A program made the translations under genes and the position numbers. Positions 10,084 through 20,530 of a stretch of 64,000 bases of DNA are shown here, piece by piece. Where the stretch lies: positions 2,528,001 through 2,592,000 of the forward strand of contig OZ245817.1 of NCBI GenBank assembly GCA_965228475.1, written 5' to 3'. Within the stretch, counting starts at the first letter, position 1. Every line of letters starts with the position of its first letter. The notes beneath the pieces were generated by a model. It did not search any database and was not told the origin of the DNA. It was given only the letters and a program-made list of their open reading frames with translations. The stretch comes from Myxococcota bacterium (lineage in GTDB: Bacteria > Myxococcota_A > UBA9160 > JAFDDA01).

Positions 10084-11937
10084 ATGCGCGTGCCTCATCG
10101 ACCTCTGTTCATTGCTTTCGCTCTCGTTGCCATGCACTTTCAGATCGGTGTGGGCTGCGCAGAGCCGCTCACCATCAACGTGACCTCACCGAGCCACGGC
10201 GAGTTCTCGACCGCCAGCTCGATCACGATCACCGGGTCCGTGACGGGCGTGCAGCCGGCCAACGCCGCGCTGACCATCAACGGCTCGCCGGTGACGGTCG
10301 CCGGGAACTCGACCTTCTCCGCGAACGTCGCCCTCGATGGCAACATCGTGTTCAACCCGTTCCTGCTCGAACTCACGAACACCAACACGAACGTCACGAT
10401 CCGCGATCGGATCGTGGTGATCGCCGGTGAGTCGGTCGCGGACGGAGCCCTGTCCGAGGACAGCATCGCGCTGCGCCTGAACGACTCGGGCCTCGACTCC
10501 ATCGAAGGGGTCGTGAGCAGCCTGGTCAACTTCGACCTCGCCACGCTCCTCCCGGTCGGGACGGCGGTGATCAACGACTTCTGCGCGATCGACGGCGGCT
10601 TCCTCGGCTGCCTCGGCAGCGTGGACGTCGTGATCGCCAACCCGACGCCGAGCATCTCGGGCTTCTCGATCGACATCGACTCGCTGGTGAACGCCGCCGC
10701 GGGCGACGTCACGATCAACGACCTCGACGTCCGGGCGCAGATCAACGGCTCGGGCATCGCCCCGAGCTGCGGGCTCCGCCTCACCGCGAACTCGCTCGAC
10801 ATCCTCGGGGACTACACCCTCGAGCCCGACGCTCTTGGCGACGCGATCGACGTGAACCTCATCACGTCGCCGCCGGGCATCGTGTTCTCGGGCTTCAACA
10901 GCGAGTTCACGAGCGGCCTGTGCGACTTCCCGCTGATCGGCAGCCTGATTCAGCTGATCATCGGCGACGTCCAGCCGATCGTCGTGAACGGCCTCCGGGA
11001 CTTCCTGGACGATCCGGACGGGGCCGGCCCCGCGGACGCCCCGCTCGCGGAAGGCATCGAGACGGCTCTGGCCGAGATCTCGATCGCCGGCCCGATCGGC
11101 GAGGGCCTCGGCCTGAACCTCGAGGCGCCGCTGTTCGCCGTGGACGAGGACAACGCGGGCATCACCCTCGGGTCCGATGGCCGCATCACCTCGACGCCGT
11201 GCACCCCGCCGCCGAACGCGCCGGACCTGCTGGCTTCCCTGGCCGTGCCGGAGCCGTTCCCGAGCTTCGGGGCGCTCACGCCGGGCGGCCTGCCCTACGG
11301 CCTCGGCATCTGCGTCTCGACGGCGGCCTTCAACCAGCTGCTGAAGGCCGAGACCGAGTGCGGCCTGCTCCAGACCACGCTGACGGAGCTCGACCTCGAT
11401 GGGCCCGGCGGCAACCCGCCGCTGCCCATCACCGCAGCCGTCCTCGCGACGTTCATCCCCGAACTGGCCAACGCCGACCCGTCGACGCCCTTCGCGATCA
11501 ATCTGATCCCGACCCTGGCGCCGGCCCTGACCGGCAACCCGGGGCCTGCGGGTGAGATTGCCGAGCTCCGGCTTGGCGGTCTGGTCGTCGAGGTCGTCGA
11601 GACCATCGGAGGCCAGAAGATCATCGACGGTCAGGTCGACTTCCGCGCCGGCCTGGACTTCAGCTTCGACAGCCAGACCAGCGAGCTCGTGCCGACCATC
11701 GGCGCGGTGGGCGCCGGGGACATCAACGTCGACATCGTGAACAACACGGTGATGACGAACCCGACCCAGCTCGCCTTCATCCTGGAGATCCTGCTGCCGG
11801 GCCTGCTGCCCACCCTGGGCGACTCGCTCGGCTCGTTCCCGCTGCCGGAACTGCTGGGCCTCCAGATCCAGGGCGTGTCCGTCGAGCAGAACGGCGAGTT
11901 CGTCTCGCTCTTCGCCGACCTGGTCCCGACTCCCTAG
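10084..11937 (+). CDS. secreted/lipoprotein with N-terminal Ig-like domain and two BPI/LBP (TULIP)-like domains
   Basis: Signal ending GVGC; Ig-like ITITGSV..LTINGSPV; SIALRLNDSGLDSI, GSLIQLI, VSTAAFNQLL..CGLL and GSFPLPELLGLQIQGVSV..FVSLFADL mirror BPI landmarks. Confidence 0.7.
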   Translation: MRVPHRPLFIAFALVAMHFQIGVGCAEPLTINVTSPSHGEFSTASSITITGSVTGVQPANAALTINGSPVTVAGNSTFSANVALDGNIVFNPFLLELTNTNTNVTIRDRIVVIAGESVADGALSEDSIALRLNDSGLDSIEGVVSSLVNFDLATLLPVGTAVINDFCAIDGGFLGCLGSVDVVIANPTPSISGFSIDIDSLVNAAAGDVTINDLDVRAQINGSGIAPSCGLRLTANSLDILGDYTLEPDALGDAIDVNLITSPPGIVFSGFNSEFTSGLCDFPLIGSLIQLIIGDVQPIVVNGLRDFLDDPDGAGPADAPLAEGIETALAEISIAGPIGEGLGLNLEAPLFAVDEDNAGITLGSDGRITSTPCTPPPNAPDLLASLAVPEPFPSFGALTPGGLPYGLGICVSTAAFNQLLKAETECGLLQTTLTELDLDGPGGNPPLPITAAVLATFIPELANADPSTPFAINLIPTLAPALTGNPGPAGEIAELRLGGLVVEVVETIGGQKIIDGQVDFRAGLDFSFDSQTSELVPTIGAVGAGDINVDIVNNTVMTNPTQLAFILEILLPGLLPTLGDSLGSFPLPELLGLQIQGVSVEQNGEFVSLFADLVPTP

Positions 11938-11959: not shown

Positions 11960-12007
11960 GCCCCCGTGACGGGACGATCCCAGATCGTCCTCGTCACGGG
12001 GGCTTTC
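11960..12007 (+). terminator. intrinsic terminator-like hairpin
   Basis: GCCCCCGTGACGGGACGATC-CCA-GATCGTCCTCGTCACGGGGGC followed by TTTC. Confidence 0.75.
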
Positions 12008-12096: not shown

Positions 12097-15000
12097 ATGC
12101 GCCTCCTCCTGCCCCTCCTGCTGACCCTGTTCGCTCTTCCCGCCCCGGCCCCCGCGGCGCCCGATTCGGGCGAGCTCGTCTATCTGAACGAAGGCAACCG
12201 CCTGCGGCGCTTCGACGTCGACACGCTCGGCCAGCGGCTTCCCGCCCAGGACGTCCTCGTCCAGCGCGAGGGGCCCGAGGGCCCGGGCGGAGGTGACGCC
12301 GGCGCGACCCCGAACGGGAACGACATCAACGGGATGATCTGCCCGTTCCCGGACGGAAGCGGGCGCTTCGTCGCCGGTGAGGACACGCACCAGCCGACGC
12401 CGCCCGCAGGCTGGGGGATCTACGCGCCCGACGGCTCTCTGGTCGGCAAGATGACCCCCACCTATCCGACCGTCTCCCCCGAGACCTTCGGCTGCGGGTT
12501 CAACTCCGAGGGCCTCCTCTTCACGACCTCGACCGGCGACCCGGGCATCGGCTTCGGGAACGGGCAGCTGATCCTCTGGTTTCCGCCCTACGAGGGCTTC
12601 CCCGGCCCCCCGGGCGCCTACCCGGAGACGAACGCCCGGAGCGAGAACTTCTGCGTCCTCGCCAACGACATCGGCACCGCCACGGGCGTCGCGATCGACG
12701 ACGACGACAACGTCTACGTCGCTTCGGGCGGACTGCTCCGCGTCCTGCGCTTCGCGCCGCCCTTCCCGACCGGGCTCGGCCCGGGCGAAGGCTGCGAAGG
12801 CACCGACCCCCAGGGCTCCCCGATGGCCGACGCCGTGAACCGCTCCATCGCCGTCCAGGGAAACCTGGCCTCGCTCTACAGCACGTTCACGGGCCTCGCG
12901 ATGGCACCGAACGGGAACCTCTACGCAGCGAGCATCATCAACGGGACGATCGGCGAGTTCCGGCTCGACACGGGCGACCCCTCCCAGGCCTCGACCTTCG
13001 TCCGTCACATCCTGCTGCCCACGGACCCGCCCTTCCCGTTCGAGACCGGCACGCCCCAGGGCCTCGCGGTGGGGGGCGACGGCAGCGTCTACTACGCCGA
13101 CATCGACCTCGTCGGCACCTTCCCGAACCTCGGCCCGGGGCCGGACGGAAAGCTCCGCCGGATCCGCTTCGACGGGAGCGGTGACCCGCTCCCGCCCGAA
13201 ACGATCCGGGACGGACTCGCCTTCCCGGACGGCGTGGCGGTCCTCCCGGGGCATCTGCCCTCGAAGGAGTGGCGCAGCTACGCGGGCGGTCCGGAGCGGC
13301 TCTTCCACAACCCCGACGAGTTCATCCTCGGCGCGGCCCAGGCCGGCTCGCTCGTGCAGCGCTGGCGCTTCGAGACCGACGCCATCATCACCGCTTCGCC
13401 CATCGTGGCGCGCCTCGACGTTCCCGGAGAGGGCCCGCAGTCGATCGCGTTCATCCAATCCTGGGACGGGAACGTCTACGCCGTGCGCGTGAAGGACGGG
13501 ACCGAACTCTGGCGGTTCGCCACGGAGCCCCAGCCCGGGGCGAACTTCCCGAACACCGGCTCCGCCCACGTCGAGAACGTCGACGGGCGCGAAACGGTCT
13601 TCATCGCCAGCGGACACCTGGCCTACGCCCTCGATGCGATCACCGGCGAGGAGATCTGGCGGTTCACGGCCGGCACGGGCTGCCGTGACGAGAACGGCGT
13701 GCCGCCCGGTGCGTGCACGATCGGAGGGGAGCGCAACGAGATCGAGACCTCGGCCATCGTCGCGGACGGGAAGGTCTACTTCGGGATGGACGTGAACGAC
13801 ACCGTGGGCGGCAAGGGCGGCTTCTTCGCCCTCGAGACGACCACCGGGCACCTCGCCTGGTTCTTCGACCTCGAGTCCGGGAAGACCTGCCGGCCCTTCC
13901 CGGGCGATGAGATCGACCAGTTCGACGCCTACCACGACGCCGCCGATCTGAACCTCCCGGCGGACTTCTTCAGTACGCGGCCGGGCTGCGACTTCCCGCG
14001 CAGCCAGACCGGCTGCGGCAACGTCTGGGCGACGCCCTCCTACGACGCGGGCCGCGACACCCTCTACGTCGCGGCGAGCAACTGCGACACGCGCACCGGG
14101 CCGGGGGACGACCCGCGAAAGCCCGACCCGCCGATGCCCCCCTTCGACCTCTCGGTCTTCGCGATCACGGCGCAGGGGACCCCGACCTGGCGCTACCGCT
14201 CCTACGCCGTCGACAACGAGGACTTCGCCTTCGGCGCCTCGCCGAACCTGTTCTCGATCGACGTGCCGGGCCTCGGCTCCGTCGACGTGCTCGGCATCGG
14301 GCAGAAGGACGGCCACTACCGGGTGCTTCCGCGCGACGGCGTGAACCCGCTGAGCGGGATCGACTGCACCGTGCTCGACGCCAACGGCGTCCCGGGCTGC
14401 GTCGACACCAACCTCGGCGGAGCCCCGTCCGAGCCGGCCGACTTCCCCGAGTTCCCCTTCTGGGACACCCAGGTCGTCCCCGGCGGCCGCGCCGGGGGCG
14501 TGATCCTCACCGCCGCCGCCAATCCGGTGGACCGGCGCATCGTCTTCAGCACGGCGCCGGGCTTCGACCCGCTGGCCCCTCAACAGCCGACGCTTCACAT
14601 CCTCGACATGGACACGGGCGACGTCGTGTGGGACGCGAGCCAGCTGCCCGTCCAGGACTCGGTCACCGAGAGCGCGAGCTTCGCACCGACGAGCACGGTC
14701 CCGGGCCTCGCCTTCTTCGGGACGGTGCCCTTCGACCTGCTCCGGGTGATCGCGACGGAAGACGACGACCCGCAGGAGGTCTTCGTCTATCCGCTTTCGG
14801 GCTTCCCGATCTCCGGAGCGGCCTCGGGCGCCATCGTCGTGGACGGCACCGTGCTCGTCGGTCACGGCATCGGCGTCCGCGGGAACCCCCAGGACCAGGG
14901 GACCCTGACCTCGAACATCCCCTCGGCCCTCGTGGCGCTGTGCGCCCCCGGCACGCCGGGCTGCGCGCCCTGCAACGACGGCATCGACAACGACCTGGAC

Positions 15001-16152
15001 GGCCTCGTGGATGGCGACGACTCCGGCTGTACCGGCCCCGGGGATCTGAGCGAGCGCCCCGATTGCATGGACGGCCTCGACAACGACCACGACGGCCTCG
15101 ATGACTGGCCGAGCGACCCCGGCTGCCGGAACCGCCTGCCGCGCTCCGTCGAGAGCCCCGCCTGCGACGACGGCATCGACAACGACGGCGACGGCGGGAT
15201 CGACCGCGACCCGGCGACCGGCGACCCCGACCTCCAGTGCGAGGCCGCCTGGGACGAGAGCGAAGGCGAGAGCAGCGGCCCGAGCTGCGGGCTCCTGGGC
15301 ATCGAAGCGCTGGCCGCGCTCCTCTGGCTCCGCCGGCCGCGTGGACGGCGCCGCGCAAGCGCCCGGCTCGTCGCGGGCGCGACGCTCGGACTGCTTGCGG
15401 CCGGGCTGCCGGCCGGCCTGGCCGGAGCGGCCCCCATCCCCGTGAGCGTCGGCGTGACGCTCGGAGTCGAGTTCCCGGGCGCGACCCTCTTCACCGGCCC
15501 GGAACAGTTCGGCACCGTCACCGTCGATGCCACGGCCCGGACGGTGTCCCTGCCGGCGGGGGTCCTCTCGCTCTCGGGCACGGTCGCCGGCCAGGTCGGC
15601 TTCACGCTCCGAAACCCGGCGGGTACGTTCCGGCCGGGCGGTGCCTCGGCGGGCACGTGCCCCGGGCCGCTCGGCGGCCAGGGCGCCTGCATCCTCGGCG
15701 CCGCCGTCGGAGGCGGCTTCGGCGGGACGCTGCCGCTCTCGGGCACGGTCCGGATCCTGTCCGCGTCGGCGTCGCTCCCGGCGACGGCCATCGGCGCGGC
15801 GCGGACCGCCTCGGCCGCGGGGAACGTCCTCCAGGGAGCGCCCTTCACGACCCGGACCGCGGCGGTCACGACCACGGCCAACGGTTTCTGGACCACCGCC
15901 CGCGGCAACCTTCCGGCAGGCTGGCTCACCGCTGCCGGCAACCCATCGGCACCGCCGGTCCAGAGCCTTCTTCTCGTGAGCCCGGTCCACGTCCAGCTCG
16001 CCGGGAGTGCATCCCCCGTGCCCGTTTTCGTGACCCTGTCGATTCGTGCGATACCCGAACCCGCCGCTGGGGCACTCATGCTGTGCGGCTGGCTCGCGCT
16101 CATGGCTAGCCTCCGGTGGCCGATGCTATGGTCCGCCGTTCTGCGAAGATGA
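12097..16152 (+). CDS. large surface (poly)protein: NHL/SMP-30-like propeller, PQQ-type propeller, Cys/Asp repeats, internal Cys-Gly anchor, internal signal peptide and PEP-CTERM domain
   Basis: Signal MRLLLPLLLTLFALPAPAPA; GLAMAPNGNLY and TPQGLAVGGDG blades; WRFETDAIITASPIV and GNVWATPSYD PQQ-type blades; CGLLGIEALAALLWLRRPRGRRR at 15286; IPEP at 16051. Alternative GTG start at 12043. Confidence 0.8.
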   Translation: MRLLLPLLLTLFALPAPAPAAPDSGELVYLNEGNRLRRFDVDTLGQRLPAQDVLVQREGPEGPGGGDAGATPNGNDINGMICPFPDGSGRFVAGEDTHQPTPPAGWGIYAPDGSLVGKMTPTYPTVSPETFGCGFNSEGLLFTTSTGDPGIGFGNGQLILWFPPYEGFPGPPGAYPETNARSENFCVLANDIGTATGVAIDDDDNVYVASGGLLRVLRFAPPFPTGLGPGEGCEGTDPQGSPMADAVNRSIAVQGNLASLYSTFTGLAMAPNGNLYAASIINGTIGEFRLDTGDPSQASTFVRHILLPTDPPFPFETGTPQGLAVGGDGSVYYADIDLVGTFPNLGPGPDGKLRRIRFDGSGDPLPPETIRDGLAFPDGVAVLPGHLPSKEWRSYAGGPERLFHNPDEFILGAAQAGSLVQRWRFETDAIITASPIVARLDVPGEGPQSIAFIQSWDGNVYAVRVKDGTELWRFATEPQPGANFPNTGSAHVENVDGRETVFIASGHLAYALDAITGEEIWRFTAGTGCRDENGVPPGACTIGGERNEIETSAIVADGKVYFGMDVNDTVGGKGGFFALETTTGHLAWFFDLESGKTCRPFPGDEIDQFDAYHDAADLNLPADFFSTRPGCDFPRSQTGCGNVWATPSYDAGRDTLYVAASNCDTRTGPGDDPRKPDPPMPPFDLSVFAITAQGTPTWRYRSYAVDNEDFAFGASPNLFSIDVPGLGSVDVLGIGQKDGHYRVLPRDGVNPLSGIDCTVLDANGVPGCVDTNLGGAPSEPADFPEFPFWDTQVVPGGRAGGVILTAAANPVDRRIVFSTAPGFDPLAPQQPTLHILDMDTGDVVWDASQLPVQDSVTESASFAPTSTVPGLAFFGTVPFDLLRVIATEDDDPQEVFVYPLSGFPISGAASGAIVVDGTVLVGHGIGVRGNPQDQGTLTSNIPSALVALCAPGTPGCAPCNDGIDNDLDGLVDGDDSGCTGPGDLSERPDCMDGLDNDHDGLDDWPSDPGCRNRLPRSVESPACDDGIDNDGDGGIDRDPATGDPDLQCEAAWDESEGESSGPSCGLLGIEALAALLWLRRPRGRRRASARLVAGATLGLLAAGLPAGLAGAAPIPVSVGVTLGVEFPGATLFTGPEQFGTVTVDATARTVSLPAGVLSLSGTVAGQVGFTLRNPAGTFRPGGASAGTCPGPLGGQGACILGAAVGGGFGGTLPLSGTVRILSASASLPATAIGAARTASAAGNVLQGAPFTTRTAAVTTTANGFWTTARGNLPAGWLTAAGNPSAPPVQSLLLVSPVHVQLAGSASPVPVFVTLSIRAIPEPAAGALMLCGWLALMASLRWPMLWSAVLRR
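14971..15240 (+). repeat. three Cys/Asp-rich coding repeats (CxDGxDNDxDGxxD), putatively Ca-binding
   Basis: CNDGIDNDLDGLVDGDDSGC, CMDGLDNDHDGLDDWPSDPGC, CDDGIDNDGDGGIDRD...DLQC. Confidence 0.85.
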
Positions 16153-16161
16153 GGGTCCGCG

Positions 16162-17985
16162 ATGAACATCCTGGGAATTTCCGCCTACTACCACGACAGT
16201 GCAGCCTGCCTGGTGCAGGACGGCCGCATCGTGGCAGCGGCCCAGGAGGAACGCTTCACCCGCAAGAAGCATGACGCGGAGTTCCCCGCCCATGCGATGC
16301 ACTACTGCCTCGAAGAAGCGGGGATCGGCGTCGAGGACCTCGACCTCGTCGCCTTCTACGACAAGCCGCTCCTGAAGTTCGAGCGCATCCTCGAGACCTA
16401 TCTTTCCTACACGCCGCGCGGCTTCAAGCTCTTCATGATGGGCTTGCCCGTCTGGCTGAAGCAGAAGCTCCATACCCCTCGCGAGCTCGACAAGGGCCTC
16501 GGGGGCAAGTACGACGGCCGCTACGTCTTTCTCGAGCACCACGAGTCCCACGCCGCGAGCGCTTTCTTCCCCTCCCCCTACGACGAGGCGGTCATCCTGA
16601 CCCTCGACGGCGTCGGCGAGTGGGACACGGGCAGCATCGCCGTCGGCCGCGGCAACAAGATCGAGATGCTCGAGGAGCTGAAGTTCCCCCACTCCCTCGG
16701 CCTGCTCTACTCCGCCTTCACCTACTTCACCGGCTTCCGGGTGAACAGCGGCGAGTACAAGCTCATGGGCCTGGCGCCCTACGGCGAGCCGATCTACGCC
16801 GACCGCATCCGGGACAACTGCCTCGACATGAAGGAGGACGGCTCCTTCCGCATGAACATGGACTACTTCGCCTACACGCGGAAAGACGTCATGACGTCGG
16901 AGAAGATGGACTCTCTCTTCGACGGCCCGCCGCGGACGGCCGAGACCGAGATCACCCAGCGCGAAATGGACATCGCGGCTTCGATCCAGGTCGTGACCGA
17001 AGAGATCATGCTGCGCATCGCGCGGCACGCCCACCGCAAGACGGGGATCGACAACCTCGTGATGGCCGGTGGCGTGGCGCTCAACTGCGTCGGCAACGGG
17101 AAGATCCTGCGCGAAGGCCCGTTCAAGAATCTCTGGATCCAGCCGGCCGCGGGCGACGCCGGCGGCGCGCTCGGCGCGGCCCTCTTCACCTGGCACCAGC
17201 TGCTCGACAACCCCCGCGACAACGGGGGCAAGGACTCCCAGACCGGATCCCTCCTCGGCCCCCAGGCCAAGGAAGCCGACATCCGCTCCTTCCTCGATTC
17301 GGCGGGCGCCGTCTACCAGCACTACGACGAGGAAGAGAAGCTCTGCGACGCCGTGGCCGAGCTCATCGCCACCGAGAACGTCGTCGGGCACATGGGCGGA
17401 CGCATGGAGTTCGGACCCCGCGCCCTCGGGAGCCGCTCCATCCTCGGCGATCCGCGCTCGCCGAAGATGCAGTCGGTGATGAACCTGAAGATCAAGTTCC
17501 GCGAGTCCTTCCGGCCCTTCGCTCCGGCCGTCCTCCAGGAGGACGTCCACGAGTGGTTCGACATGAAGCCCGGCCAGGAGAGCCCCTACATGCTCCTCGT
17601 CGCCCCGGTCCGCGAGGACAAGTGCAAGCCCGTCGACGACAGCAAGAGCGGGCTCGACAAGCTCAAGCAGGAGCGCTCGGTGCTGCCCGCGATCACCCAC
17701 GTCGACTACTCCGCGCGCGTGCAGACCGTCGACCCGGAACGCTACCCGCGCTTCTACGGCATCCTCAGCCGCTTCAAGGCCAAGACGGGCTGCGGCGTGA
17801 TGATCAACACCAGCTTCAACGTCCGCGGCGAGCCGATCGTCTGCACCCCGGCGGACGCCTACCGCTGCTTCATGGGCACCAACATGGACGCCCTGGTGAT
17901 CGAGAACTTCGTCCTGCGCAAAGAAGACCAGCCGGACGCCGACGTCGACCGCGAGGCCTACCTCGCGAAGTTCGACCTGGACTAG
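16162..17985 (+). CDS. O-carbamoyltransferase (NodU/CmcH/SxtI family)
   Basis: MNILGISAYYHDSAA..AAQEERFTRKKH, EHHESHAAS, DGVGE, GEYKLMGLAPYG, AGGVALNC, EFGPRALG, KFRESFRPFAP, NTSFNVRGEPIV. Confidence 0.95.
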   Translation: MNILGISAYYHDSAACLVQDGRIVAAAQEERFTRKKHDAEFPAHAMHYCLEEAGIGVEDLDLVAFYDKPLLKFERILETYLSYTPRGFKLFMMGLPVWLKQKLHTPRELDKGLGGKYDGRYVFLEHHESHAASAFFPSPYDEAVILTLDGVGEWDTGSIAVGRGNKIEMLEELKFPHSLGLLYSAFTYFTGFRVNSGEYKLMGLAPYGEPIYADRIRDNCLDMKEDGSFRMNMDYFAYTRKDVMTSEKMDSLFDGPPRTAETEITQREMDIAASIQVVTEEIMLRIARHAHRKTGIDNLVMAGGVALNCVGNGKILREGPFKNLWIQPAAGDAGGALGAALFTWHQLLDNPRDNGGKDSQTGSLLGPQAKEADIRSFLDSAGAVYQHYDEEEKLCDAVAELIATENVVGHMGGRMEFGPRALGSRSILGDPRSPKMQSVMNLKIKFRESFRPFAPAVLQEDVHEWFDMKPGQESPYMLLVAPVREDKCKPVDDSKSGLDKLKQERSVLPAITHVDYSARVQTVDPERYPRFYGILSRFKAKTGCGVMINTSFNVRGEPIVCTPADAYRCFMGTNMDALVIENFVLRKEDQPDADVDREAYLAKFDLD

Positions 17986-17988
17986 CCG

Positions 17989-18435
17989 ATGGCGAAGATG
18001 GTCGAAATCGATTGGAACCCGGATCCGGGAACCCTGCGCCAGTTCGGCTGGGTGGCTCTCGTGGGCTTCTCGCTGATCGCCCTTCTGGCGCACCAGGAGT
18101 GGCTGATCTTCGCTTTCGGCCTCGGCGATGCGCGAATGAAGGTGGTCGTGGGCCTGCTCGCCGTCGGCGCCCTCGCCGCCCTGATCGGCCTCGTCTACCC
18201 GAAGGCCAACAAGCCCCTCTTCATCGGCCTGACGCTCCTGGCCTTCCCGATCGGGTTCGTACTCTCGTACGTCATCATGATCACCCTGTTCTTCGTGATC
18301 ATCGCGCCGATCGGGATCCTCATGCGCCTCGCCGGACGGGATCCGATGGAGCGTGAGATCGACCCGAACGCCGAGAGCTATTGGACGCCGGCCAAACCCG
18401 CGCCGCCCAACAGCCGCTACTTCCGCCAGTTCTAG
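17989..18435 (+). CDS. SxtJ-family membrane protein
   Basis: LRQFG, several TM segments, PIG..MRLAGRDPM..SYW..RQF; follows the carbamoyltransferase. Confidence 0.85.
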   Translation: MAKMVEIDWNPDPGTLRQFGWVALVGFSLIALLAHQEWLIFAFGLGDARMKVVVGLLAVGALAALIGLVYPKANKPLFIGLTLLAFPIGFVLSYVIMITLFFVIIAPIGILMRLAGRDPMEREIDPNAESYWTPAKPAPPNSRYFRQF

Positions 18436-18779: not shown

Positions 18780-19427
18780 CTAGCGAGCTTCGTCCGGGAA
18801 GCAGGCGTCGCGCTGGTGCCGGTAGGCGGCGATCAGCCAGTCGCGCGTCTTTTCCCGGGCCACGGAGAGCTTGCCCGGCATGACGGGGCCCCCCGCGATC
18901 AGCAGCGTCAGCGGACGCGTGGCGTCGAGCACGAGTTCGGGAGCCCGCTTGAGCTGGGCCAGGCTCGGGTGCCGGACCGGCTCGCCTCCGAAGACGAACA
19001 GGTAGCTCGCGACGGCTCGGCGGCCGTTCGCGCGGTCGATGATGGTCTGGATCGGGAGCGTCTTGCCGTCGACCTCGACGTGTTCGACCTCCCGCTGCCC
19101 GGCCTCGAACTGCCCGAGCAGGATGCCCGGCGGACGCGTGTAGAGCCGGATCGCATCGAAGGAGCGCACCAGCGCTCCGCGCAGCTCGACGCCCCGCTCG
19201 CCGATGTCGATCTCCGCCTGGGTCCACTGGGGCACGTCCTCGTCGTACCTCTCGAGGCGTTCGGAAAAGGTCCGGGTGAACGGCAGGCCCTTGATCTCGA
19301 GCGCCCGCTCGGGGTCCTGGCAGTCATCGTGGCGGCGCACCTCGAAGCGTGCGACCGCCAGCGGCGCGAGCAGCACCCCGACCGCCACGAGAAGCCACGG
19401 CGCGTGGCGGCCCGACAGATGGATCAT
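18780..19427 (-). CDS. exosortase-associated EpsI-family protein
   Basis: ATGA overlap with the exosortase, single N-terminal TM, periplasmic domain with VASYLFVFGG. Confidence 0.6.
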   Translation of the reverse strand: MIHLSGRHAPWLLVAVGVLLAPLAVARFEVRRHDDCQDPERALEIKGLPFTRTFSERLERYDEDVPQWTQAEIDIGERGVELRGALVRSFDAIRLYTRPPGILLGQFEAGQREVEHVEVDGKTLPIQTIIDRANGRRAVASYLFVFGGEPVRHPSLAQLKRAPELVLDATRPLTLLIAGGPVMPGKLSVAREKTRDWLIAAYRHQRDACFPDEAR

Positions 19428-20530
19428 GCCAGGGCTTCGCGCAGGTTGTCGCGGTCCGACACCATGAACAGGACGAGCAGCACGAGCCAGAACGTCGCGA
19501 CGCCCGAGGCACCGTGGAACGCGGTGTCGAGCAGGTCCGAACCGAACCAGTGCGCCGCGACGACCAGCAGGAAGACCCGCAGCGTGTTGCAGAGCAGCGC
19601 CAGCGGCCACGCCGCCACCAGCAGCGCCAGGCGGCGCCAGTTCGAGCGCGCATAGCGAGCGAGGATCAAGGAGAGCCCGACCGCGGCGTAGAGGGTCGAG
19701 AAGCCGCTACAGGCGTCGGCGACCAGGAAGGTCTCCTTCGGCAGGACCAGGAGCGTGTCCTCGCGAAGCACGGGGATCCCCACGAACCGGATCATGGGCT
19801 CGACGAGCTGCGCCGTCCAGCTGCGCAGGAACAGGTGCGCGCCCATCATGTTCGGGATCGGGATCATGAACACGCCGAGCAGGAGCGGCATCGCGAGCAT
19901 CCGCGTTCGACGGATGCCGAGCAGCAGCAGCGAGAGCCCGGGCAGCAGAAAGACGAAGCCGACCGCAGCCAGGTACGCGGTCCGCAGCGCGAAGTCCGCC
20001 GAGGCCGCCAGCAGCGCGGGTACGACCAGCGCCAGGCCCCAGAGTGACCCCTCGGGCCGCTCGGGATGCGGATCTGCGCGCAGCGCGTTGGCCGCGAGGT
20101 AGGCCATCAGAAAGGGCATGAAGAGCCCGTGCCCGTTCTCCCAGATGTTCCCGGTCCACTTGTCGTAGAGGAAGACGAAGGTCGGCGCGAAGAAGACGAC
20201 CAGCAGCACCAGGGCCAACCAGACCATCGGCGAAATCGAGCGGGCTGGGACGCCGAAGATCGGTGCGTCCGCGGGCGTCTCCTCGACCGGGTCCCACCAC
20301 AGGCGCCACGCCGCCACGCCGATCGCCGTTCCCACGCCGGCGATCAGTTTCACCACGAGCTCCTGGGGCACGAAGGGACTGACGGCGATGGTCACGCCGG
20401 CGACGGCGGCGAGCACGAGAGTCCGGAGCGGTTCCTGGCGCAGCAAGGGACTCCCTGGGATGAAGGGCTCGGGCCGGGGACATCGGGAAACGCCGCCACG
20501 GCCCGACCCGGCCGCGCGGAGCTCGCGCAC
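19424..20530 (-). CDS. exosortase/archaeosortase family protein (EpsH-like)
   Basis: GHGLFMP, MIPIP, VLREDTLL, VADACSG (catalytic Cys), CNTLRV (Arg), FHG (His); multi-TM; start uncertain. Confidence 0.9.
   Translation of the reverse strand: MRELRAAGSGRGGVSRCPRPEPFIPGSPLLRQEPLRTLVLAAVAGVTIAVSPFVPQELVVKLIAGVGTAIGVAAWRLWWDPVEETPADAPIFGVPARSISPMVWLALVLLVVFFAPTFVFLYDKWTGNIWENGHGLFMPFLMAYLAANALRADPHPERPEGSLWGLALVVPALLAASADFALRTAYLAAVGFVFLLPGLSLLLLGIRRTRMLAMPLLLGVFMIPIPNMMGAHLFLRSWTAQLVEPMIRFVGIPVLREDTLLVLPKETFLVADACSGFSTLYAAVGLSLILARYARSNWRRLALLVAAWPLALLCNTLRVFLLVVAAHWFGSDLLDTAFHGASGVATFWLVLLVLFMVSDRDNLREALA

Follow-up and report, generated by a model that had tools for sequence, protein, structure and literature searches.

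The window analysed here is a stretch of 64,000 nucleotides (nt) from a Myxococcota bacterium (positions 2,528,001 to 2,592,000 of contig OZ245817.1), whose genome is one contig of 5.0 Mb with 70% G+C. It contains an uninterrupted frame, 12097-16152, which constitutes a single open reading frame (ORF) of 1351 amino acids. The deduced protein consists, in this order, of a signal peptide, two beta-propellers, acidic repeats, a Cys-containing sorting tag (Cys tag), a second signal peptide without a start codon, a beta-barrel and a PEP-CTERM tag. The part up to and including the Cys tag is designated unit 1, and the part following the second signal is designated unit 2. An earlier note, made from the letters of the sequence, had interpreted this ORF as a polyprotein of two exported proteins with different C-terminal sorting signals. 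All of its landmarks were reproduced: the Cys at 15286, the Arg cluster at 15331, the end of A-G-A at 15429, APIP at 15430 and IPEP at 16051. It was also correct in stating that the second unit has no canonical start for its signal, as the junction contains no in-frame ATG, GTG or TTG before 15442. Three near-cognate codons (CTG/ATC) occur in the junction, all of them without a Shine-Dalgarno (SD)-like motif.

Authenticity and parts of the fused reading frame

The contigs of runs X1 and X2, which may be the source data themselves, are identical to the window over 14600-16600. A contig from a separate study (X5) belongs to a strain of about 97% identity; it differs in 55 of 2001 letters, keeps the frame, and has its sole gap at 16159, outside the ORF. 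Neither a stop codon nor a frameshift was found at the junction in these spanning contigs, and an assembly error is ruled out as far as contigs can show. Among the listed changes between X5 and the window, 17 synonymous and 4 non-synonymous ones fall in unit 2 and one, a Ser/Gly change, in the junction; 28 further rows were left aside in these counts. The G+C content at third codon positions (GC3) is 0.90-0.98 along the ORF and 0.90-0.93 in unit 2, and falls only in the last 52 codons. Given the in-frame strain contig, the excess of synonymous changes and the steady GC3, the fusion is genuine, and purifying selection acts on its second half in this frame. The suspicion of a recent accidental fusion with a decaying second half is thus refuted by GC3, by the strain substitutions and by the conserved layout in homologues described below. 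The looser 3' codon bias on which it was based is confined to the last 52 codons and does not apply to unit 2 overall.

The coordinates of all parts are given in Table 1. The proposal of two propellers stands for the second one, which matches PF01011 and PF13360; the first gives weak NHL/SGL/ScyE matches only, and its domain is also found alone in relatives. Among the sequences of the PDB, matches of the second propeller were limited to designed propellers and 3hxj.

For unit 2, the AlphaFold2 model (predicted local distance difference test score, pLDDT, 85.6; predicted TM-score 0.84) is a beta-barrel folded on its own. Its structural matches are weak and YceI/lipocalin-like (best Z 7.1, root mean square deviation 3.9, 129 aligned residues), with OmpW-type barrels tying; a search of the ESM Atlas gave no usable match. 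The genome encodes five stand-alone paralogues of unit 2, each with a Met, a signal and a PEP-CTERM tag. Nine more matches were found among representatives (P0122-P0130 type); two of these are partial, and most are stand-alone proteins with a signal of their own. Stand-alone homologues, which the earlier note had regarded as informative, exist for both halves. The internal A-G-A|APIP aligns with the A-x-A sites of the five paralogues and of the P0122-P0130-type stand-alone homologues. As judged by rules and by eye, the internal signal has a basic n-region, an uncharged h-region and A-x-A at the boundary of the mature domain. Searches for related loci in metagenomes with the single unit 2 protein, and in genome contigs with A5, returned nothing.

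Table 1. Parts of the fused ORF and further features. Positions refer to the window, or to contig C1 of the source genome (G000) where indicated.
Feature	Position	Strand	Basis
N-terminal signal peptide of unit 1	12097..12156	+	by eye; hydrophobic N-termini alike in homologues
First beta-propeller, NHL/SGL/ScyE-like	12160..13260	+	weak: NF033206 E 1e-6, PF01436 E 5e-4
Second beta-propeller, PQQ/BamB-type	13264..14955	+	PF01011 54.5 bits, PF13360 42.5 bits
Three acidic double-disulfide repeats	14959..15264	+	NF033662 50.3 bits, cut-off 41
Internal Cys sorting tag, CGLLGIE and short helix	15286..15330	+	genome's CG-L-G-x-E C-terminal tag family
Arg cluster, presumed cytoplasmic tail of the Cys tag and n-region of the second signal	15331..15354	+	5-13 Arg/Lys between the hydrophobic stretches in 18/18 fused proteins
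Start-less second signal peptide, h-region and A-x-A	15355..15429	+	hydropathy; alignment with stand-alone paralogues
Type A domain of unit 2, predicted to fold on its own as a beta-barrel, with Cys pair	15430..16050	+	AlphaFold2 model
Terminal PEP-CTERM tag, atypically long tail	16051..16152	+	TIGR02595 10.6 bits, cut-off 16
DNA element TGCTAnnnT, likely extended -10 of carbamoyltransferase gene	16124..16132	+	conserved in L088 and L089
Carbamoyltransferase (NodU/CmcH family) gene	16162..17985	+	PF02543/PF16861; also downstream in L089
Exosortase, one of two in genome over cut-off	19424..20530	-	PF09721 171.7 bits, TIGR02602
PEP-signal-PEP gene	C1 1532823-1533959	+	
PEP-signal-PEP gene	C1 1689878-1691428	-	
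PEP-signal-PEP gene	C1 3336426-3338255	+	
PEP-signal-PEP gene	C1 4197019-4198845	-	

Fused homologues and the history of the junction

A search with the unit 1 protein yielded 307 matches, the best 120 of which (window protein included; lengths 743-2365 only) were analysed. Some of these homologues are named Myxococcota in their source records. The complete succession of Cys tag, Arg cluster, second signal, domain and PEP-type tag is present in 15 of the 119 listed homologues. The second unit of the window defines type A fusions, four of which are among the listed homologues (37-56% identity); L089 is one more. An unrelated second unit defines the 13 type B fusions, namely 11 with the Cys tag plus P0065 and P0106. 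In the latter two, a PEP/PAP-type tag replaces the internal Cys tag at the same junction position, which indicates that the layout of the sorting signals is kept although the motif changes. The junction of the window thus recurs, in 15 homologues with the Cys tag and in two with a PEP-like junction tag.

A second hydrophobic stretch, free of charges and with A-x-A behind it, is present in each of the 18 fused proteins (window included); only P0046 has a Met in the interval from the Arg cluster to this second h-region. At the domain boundary, which was picked by eye from the alignments, the site is A-x-A in 15 of 16 cases and G-x-A in one. The percent identity of the junctions was discarded, because it is inflated by their Ala, Leu and Arg composition. 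As a control, the best-scoring Cys tags of relatives were inspected, and none of 60 runs into a signal. It follows that the fusion is specific to this family and is not a common read-through.

The type B second unit has no match in Pfam. In its model (pLDDT 80.7), all listed Foldseek matches are cohesins (best E 3.7e-6, TM 0.67), and the ESM Atlas assigned it to a cohesin cluster (0.88), which is a lead only. With a profile built from 11 of the 13 type B proteins, a dockerin-like module was detected just before the tag in 13/13 type B, 0/4 type A and 27/102 other listed homologues. The dockerin-like module of genome G017 reaches PF00404 with an E-value of 2.7e-4 and 21.5 bits, just under the cut-off of 22.9. 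In the window, repeat 2 of the acidic repeats harbours a GCRNRL motif; it was found in six of the 120 listed proteins, namely all five type A fusions (window included) and P0006. The co-occurrence of dockerin-like module and predicted cohesin on the one hand, and of RNRL repeats and type A unit on the other, suggests that each chain may pair a cargo with its own docking anchor. For the sister clade, the modelled cohesin/dockerin-like pairing is a possible reason for the fusion. No literature combining cohesin, dockerin and PEP-CTERM was found. In G017, a Myxococcota-type genome, a dockerin-like module stands beside an adjacent cohesin-fold PEP-CTERM gene (L008:4330-5144).

In the same genome, the two parts are separate genes: unit 1 ends at the Cys tag, and a type B gene with AGGAG and ATG begins 14 nt further on. 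P0046 is an in-frame fusion that retains a linker and the Met. The other fusions are trimmed to 42-60 residues between the Cys and the cleavage site. Judged by their sequences, these cases represent an evolutionary series leading from separate genes via a fusion with Met to a trimmed, Met-less junction. A tree of the second propeller was calculated for 50 of the 120 rows; a FastTree of all 120 agrees. The type B fusions belong to one clade of 14 proteins, 13 of which are fused, with a support of 99 in the Shimodaira-Hasegawa-like approximate likelihood ratio test. Its terminal branches correspond to 0.1-0.5 changes per site.

A junction profile of four sequences was applied to 40 relatives; it detected mostly terminal PEP tags, and 30 loci and 20 stretches were inspected. 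The yield was two trimmed PEP-signal junctions and three untrimmed Cys-tag read-throughs. The loci L061 and L063 of G008 and L067 of G038 contain subtilase-like genes in which a Cys tag reads into PEP-CTERM genes with linker and Met still in place, as well as one trimmed PEP-signal-PEP fusion and one PEP-signal fusion to an untagged domain. Four more genes with the order signal, domain, PEP tag, Arg cluster, signal, domain, PEP tag exist in the source genome (Table 1). Orthologues of unit 1 have other tails in L017 (G031), L009 and L011-L013, where an IPTL-like helix-Arg tail or an untagged C-terminal domain was observed. These varied tails suggest that the C-terminal module is freely exchanged.

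Sorting tags, candidate enzymes and neighbouring genes

In the source genome, 22 genes carry a terminal C-G-L-G-x-E tag, which is followed by a short helix and arginines (for example C1:963820-963903). All 21 aligned tags share the Cys, both Gly and the Glu without exception. The Glu that had been listed as a weakness of the first hydrophobic stretch in the window protein is thus a signature of the family. Between the Cys and the first Arg, the window protein has 15 residues and the terminal tags have 14-18. CG-L-G-x-E tags are present in 32 of the 40 relatives. Acidic double-disulfide repeats lie just upstream of the tag in 13 of 25 profile matches, 3 of which are probably spurious.

The layout of MYXO-CTERM, with Cys motif, helix and Arg-rich tail, is found in this family too. 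However, the window tag matches neither TIGR03901 nor TIGR03382. Among the 21 family members, four match TIGR03901 with a best E-value of 2.5, and the 24 matches in the genome contain no CG tag. No tag model catalogued in NCBIfam reaches its cut-off for the CGLGxE tag. Membership of the window tag in MYXO-CTERM was rejected, since the tag fails the cut-off of TIGR03901 and no myxosortase of the genome exceeds its own. The claim of a MYXO-CTERM-like anchor is therefore retained for the layout and abandoned for model score and myxosortase: the first tag belongs to a lineage-specific CGLGxE type and resembles MYXO-CTERM in layout only. The genome contains six CPBP genes. The single-copy CPBP protease at C1:3377044-3377703(-) (L084) has the best sub-threshold score for the myxosortase core and is the nearest candidate enzyme for the Cys tag, a lead only.

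The second tag has the layout of PEP-CTERM (IPEP, helix and RR at the C-terminus) and aligns with the PEP tags of the paralogues. The orthologues P0007 and P0008 pass PF07589, and distant orthologues have normal tails. An exosortase gene at the predicted position was confirmed by PF09721 (Table 1). The genome encodes signal peptidase I (three matches over cut-off), exosortase (two) and the secretin GspD of a type II secretion system.

The long tail of the PEP tag overlaps a DNA element (Table 1). The sequence TGGCCGATGCTAnnnT is conserved at the DNA level in the window, L088 and L089, and the element includes the sole CTA among the 119 Leu codons of the ORF. A sigma-70 scan found no promoter, this element included. 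That the PEP tail is long and scores low is probably due to an extended -10 promoter element which overlaps it, in line with the promoter suspected at this position. Directly 3' of the ORF, the carbamoyltransferase gene is followed by an SxtJ-like gene (PF19588; together 16162-18435, plus strand). Upstream, the gene 10084-11937(+) encodes an exported protein with a possible lipobox, an Ig-like N-terminal domain and a long acidic C-terminal region; a terminator-like hairpin (11987-12003) follows it.

A proposed membrane-processed polyprotein and its alternatives

The ORF joins two genes for exported proteins in a fusion that is old and conserved, and it probably functions as a membrane-processed polyprotein. 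Unit 1 would be exported by Sec, and the helix of the Cys tag would stop the transfer. The Arg cluster would stay in the cytoplasm and double as the n-region of the second signal, whose h-region would restart export. Signal peptidase I is expected to cut after A-G-A (15429). Of the two tags, the Cys tag would be processed by a putative enzyme, probably of the CPBP family, and the PEP tag by exosortase. The outcome would be two separately anchored envelope proteins made from a single translation start. The likely benefit would be the co-production of partners, such as the dockerin-like module and the predicted cohesin of the sister clade. Of the polyprotein interpretation in the earlier note, the conservation, the stand-alone homologues of both halves and the position of A-x-A speak in favour; the identity of the first tag had to be revised as described above.

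Several observations weigh against this reading. With respect to the first tag, a leave-one-out profile assigned 11.8 bits to the window and 16.8-44.0 bits to the 22 terminal tags, the lowest value of all 23. Myxosortase NF040914 reached at best 27.1 bits in the genome, and 36.5 on the isolated domain, at a cut-off of 100. The CPBP candidate is conserved in 39 of the 40 relatives, including eight without tag matches, and the phylogenetic profile consequently does not single it out. The PEP tag of the window stays below the cut-off of TIGR02595 and has no match to PF07589. With respect to the fusion, 49 of the 119 listed homologues end at the Cys tag, which makes the fusion dispensable; 55 have other tails, the fused P0065 and P0106 among them. 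P0096 is unfused within the type B clade, P0005 and P0006, both without a fusion, are near neighbours of the window protein in the tree, and the type A fusions do not form one clade on unit 1 (approximately unbiased test, p 9e-5). Because of this non-monophyly and the unfused close relatives, either the fusion was gained at least twice or the C-terminal cassette is mobile, and a fusion can be lost. Moreover, 4 of the 114 terminal tags in the genome are one stop read-through away from a similar layout, so that fusion by stop loss is easy. In P0004/L088, in-frame TTG and ATG codons lie inside helix 1, one of them with GAGG upstream. Finally, all of the cleavages are inferred, as are the topology and any binding of the two units to each other.

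The first tag bears on an unlikely alternative, namely that the exported chain stays uncut at the second signal and forms a two-pass hairpin tether, which would make it a single polytopic protein, or that unit 2 is tethered at both ends after cleavage of the Cys tag. The short helix 1 of 15 residues, the lowest tag score of the family and the lack of a cognate sortase over cut-off in the genome are consistent with such a tether; against it, 15 of the 16 junctions, although diverged, retain A-x-A at the boundary of the domain, and the swap to another sorting tag in two homologues makes little sense if the tether is passive.

The unfused close relatives, the non-monophyly of type A, the four tags that are one stop loss away and the untrimmed read-throughs of G008, which keep Met and SD, would also agree with near-neutral read-through fusions of tandem genes that are tolerated, gained and lost by drift. 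This explanation concerns the cause of the fusion and is compatible with cleavage. It is rather improbable, given that 13 of 14 members of the type B clade are fused over the terminal branches stated above, that 17 of 18 proteins have a trimmed junction devoid of Met, that partner-like modules co-occur, and that none of the 60 control tags is fused. Internal initiation of unit 2, which would turn the polyprotein into two overlapping in-frame genes and could use the Met of P0046, the TTG/ATG in helix 1 of L088 or the GTG at 15442 of the window with GGAG about 14 nt upstream, is very improbable, since neither the window nor L089 offers a canonical start upstream of the cleavage site or an SD-like motif at near-cognate codons, the GTG at 15442 lies past the signal and would give a product that is not exported, and translation of unit 1 would cross the junction in any case for want of a stop codon.

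Beyond the preferred reading of the window as a processed polyprotein, it is a tentative idea that the order signal, cargo, sorting tag, Arg cluster, signal, cargo, sorting tag is a general polyprotein code for the envelope in some Myxococcota, in which interchangeable tags of different sortase systems, including CGLGxE, are chained and a cargo is made together with its own docking anchor at a fixed ratio of 1:1, dockerin and cohesin in the type B clade and RNRL repeat and beta-barrel in the window.

Natural polyproteins are considered rare in bacteria. In viral envelope polyproteins, such as flavivirus prM-E, and in the FbcH cytochrome b-c1 precursor of Bradyrhizobium, a stop-transfer helix and a basic loop precede an internal signal that is cut by signal peptidase. 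Unlike these, each of the two predicted products of the ORF bears a sortase-type tag, and the enzymes to which the tags are directed are bacterial and unrelated. Known cohesin-dockerin pairs, cellulosomal or non-cellulosomal, resemble the type B sister clade, with its predicted cohesin and dockerin-like module, and not the protein of the window itself; type B differs from them in that both modules are in one chain with PEP-CTERM anchoring.

The closest described case is MXAN_5598 of Myxococcus xanthus, which has one internal MYXO-CTERM; it was ascribed to gene fusion, and processing was proposed (Guo, Haft and Wall 2025, PMC11980579). The same paper cites earlier work according to which sorting tags function internally. 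MXAN_5598 and the window protein share a C-terminal-type Cys tag in the middle of the protein. In MXAN_5598, however, the C-terminal part is an outer membrane beta-barrel/OmpA, and the available text describes no second signal or tag. In the fused ORF, unit 2 is preceded by a signal of its own and ends in a PEP-CTERM tag, which is directed to a different enzyme, and the Cys tag has no match to TIGR03901. PEP-CTERM/exosortase substrates, as far as presented in the available text of Haft et al. 2006 (PMC1569441), resemble unit 2 in having a signal, a small uncharacterised domain, a PEP-helix-basic tail and an exosortase nearby; they differ from it in that the signal of unit 2 is internal and lacks its own start codon. 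The MYXO-, JDVT-, Synerg- and CGP-CTERM families with their CPBP myxosortases (Haft, bioRxiv 10.1101/2023.06.07.544157) likewise show, in the available text, an invariant Cys, a helix and an Arg cluster on many unrelated exported proteins. The family of the window differs from them by CG-L-G-x-E with its invariant Glu, by the short helix, and by the absence of a model or Mrt enzyme over cut-off. No description of chained tags from two systems was found in the literature; supplements (for example Table S1 of PMC11980579) could mention more.

To these systems the locus adds two tag systems in one predicted chain, the interchange of tags, the apparent series from separate genes to trimmed junctions, and the suggested cohesin/dockerin pairing. 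If the chain is cut as predicted, the nominally C-terminal tags of two unrelated sortase systems work in series with one Arg cluster serving two signals, and annotation pipelines miscount such genes as one protein. The ORF would then be a ready-made substrate with which the enzyme of the CGLGxE tag could be sought and exosortase biochemistry studied, and the arrangement would be a natural design for the stoichiometric surface display of partner proteins.

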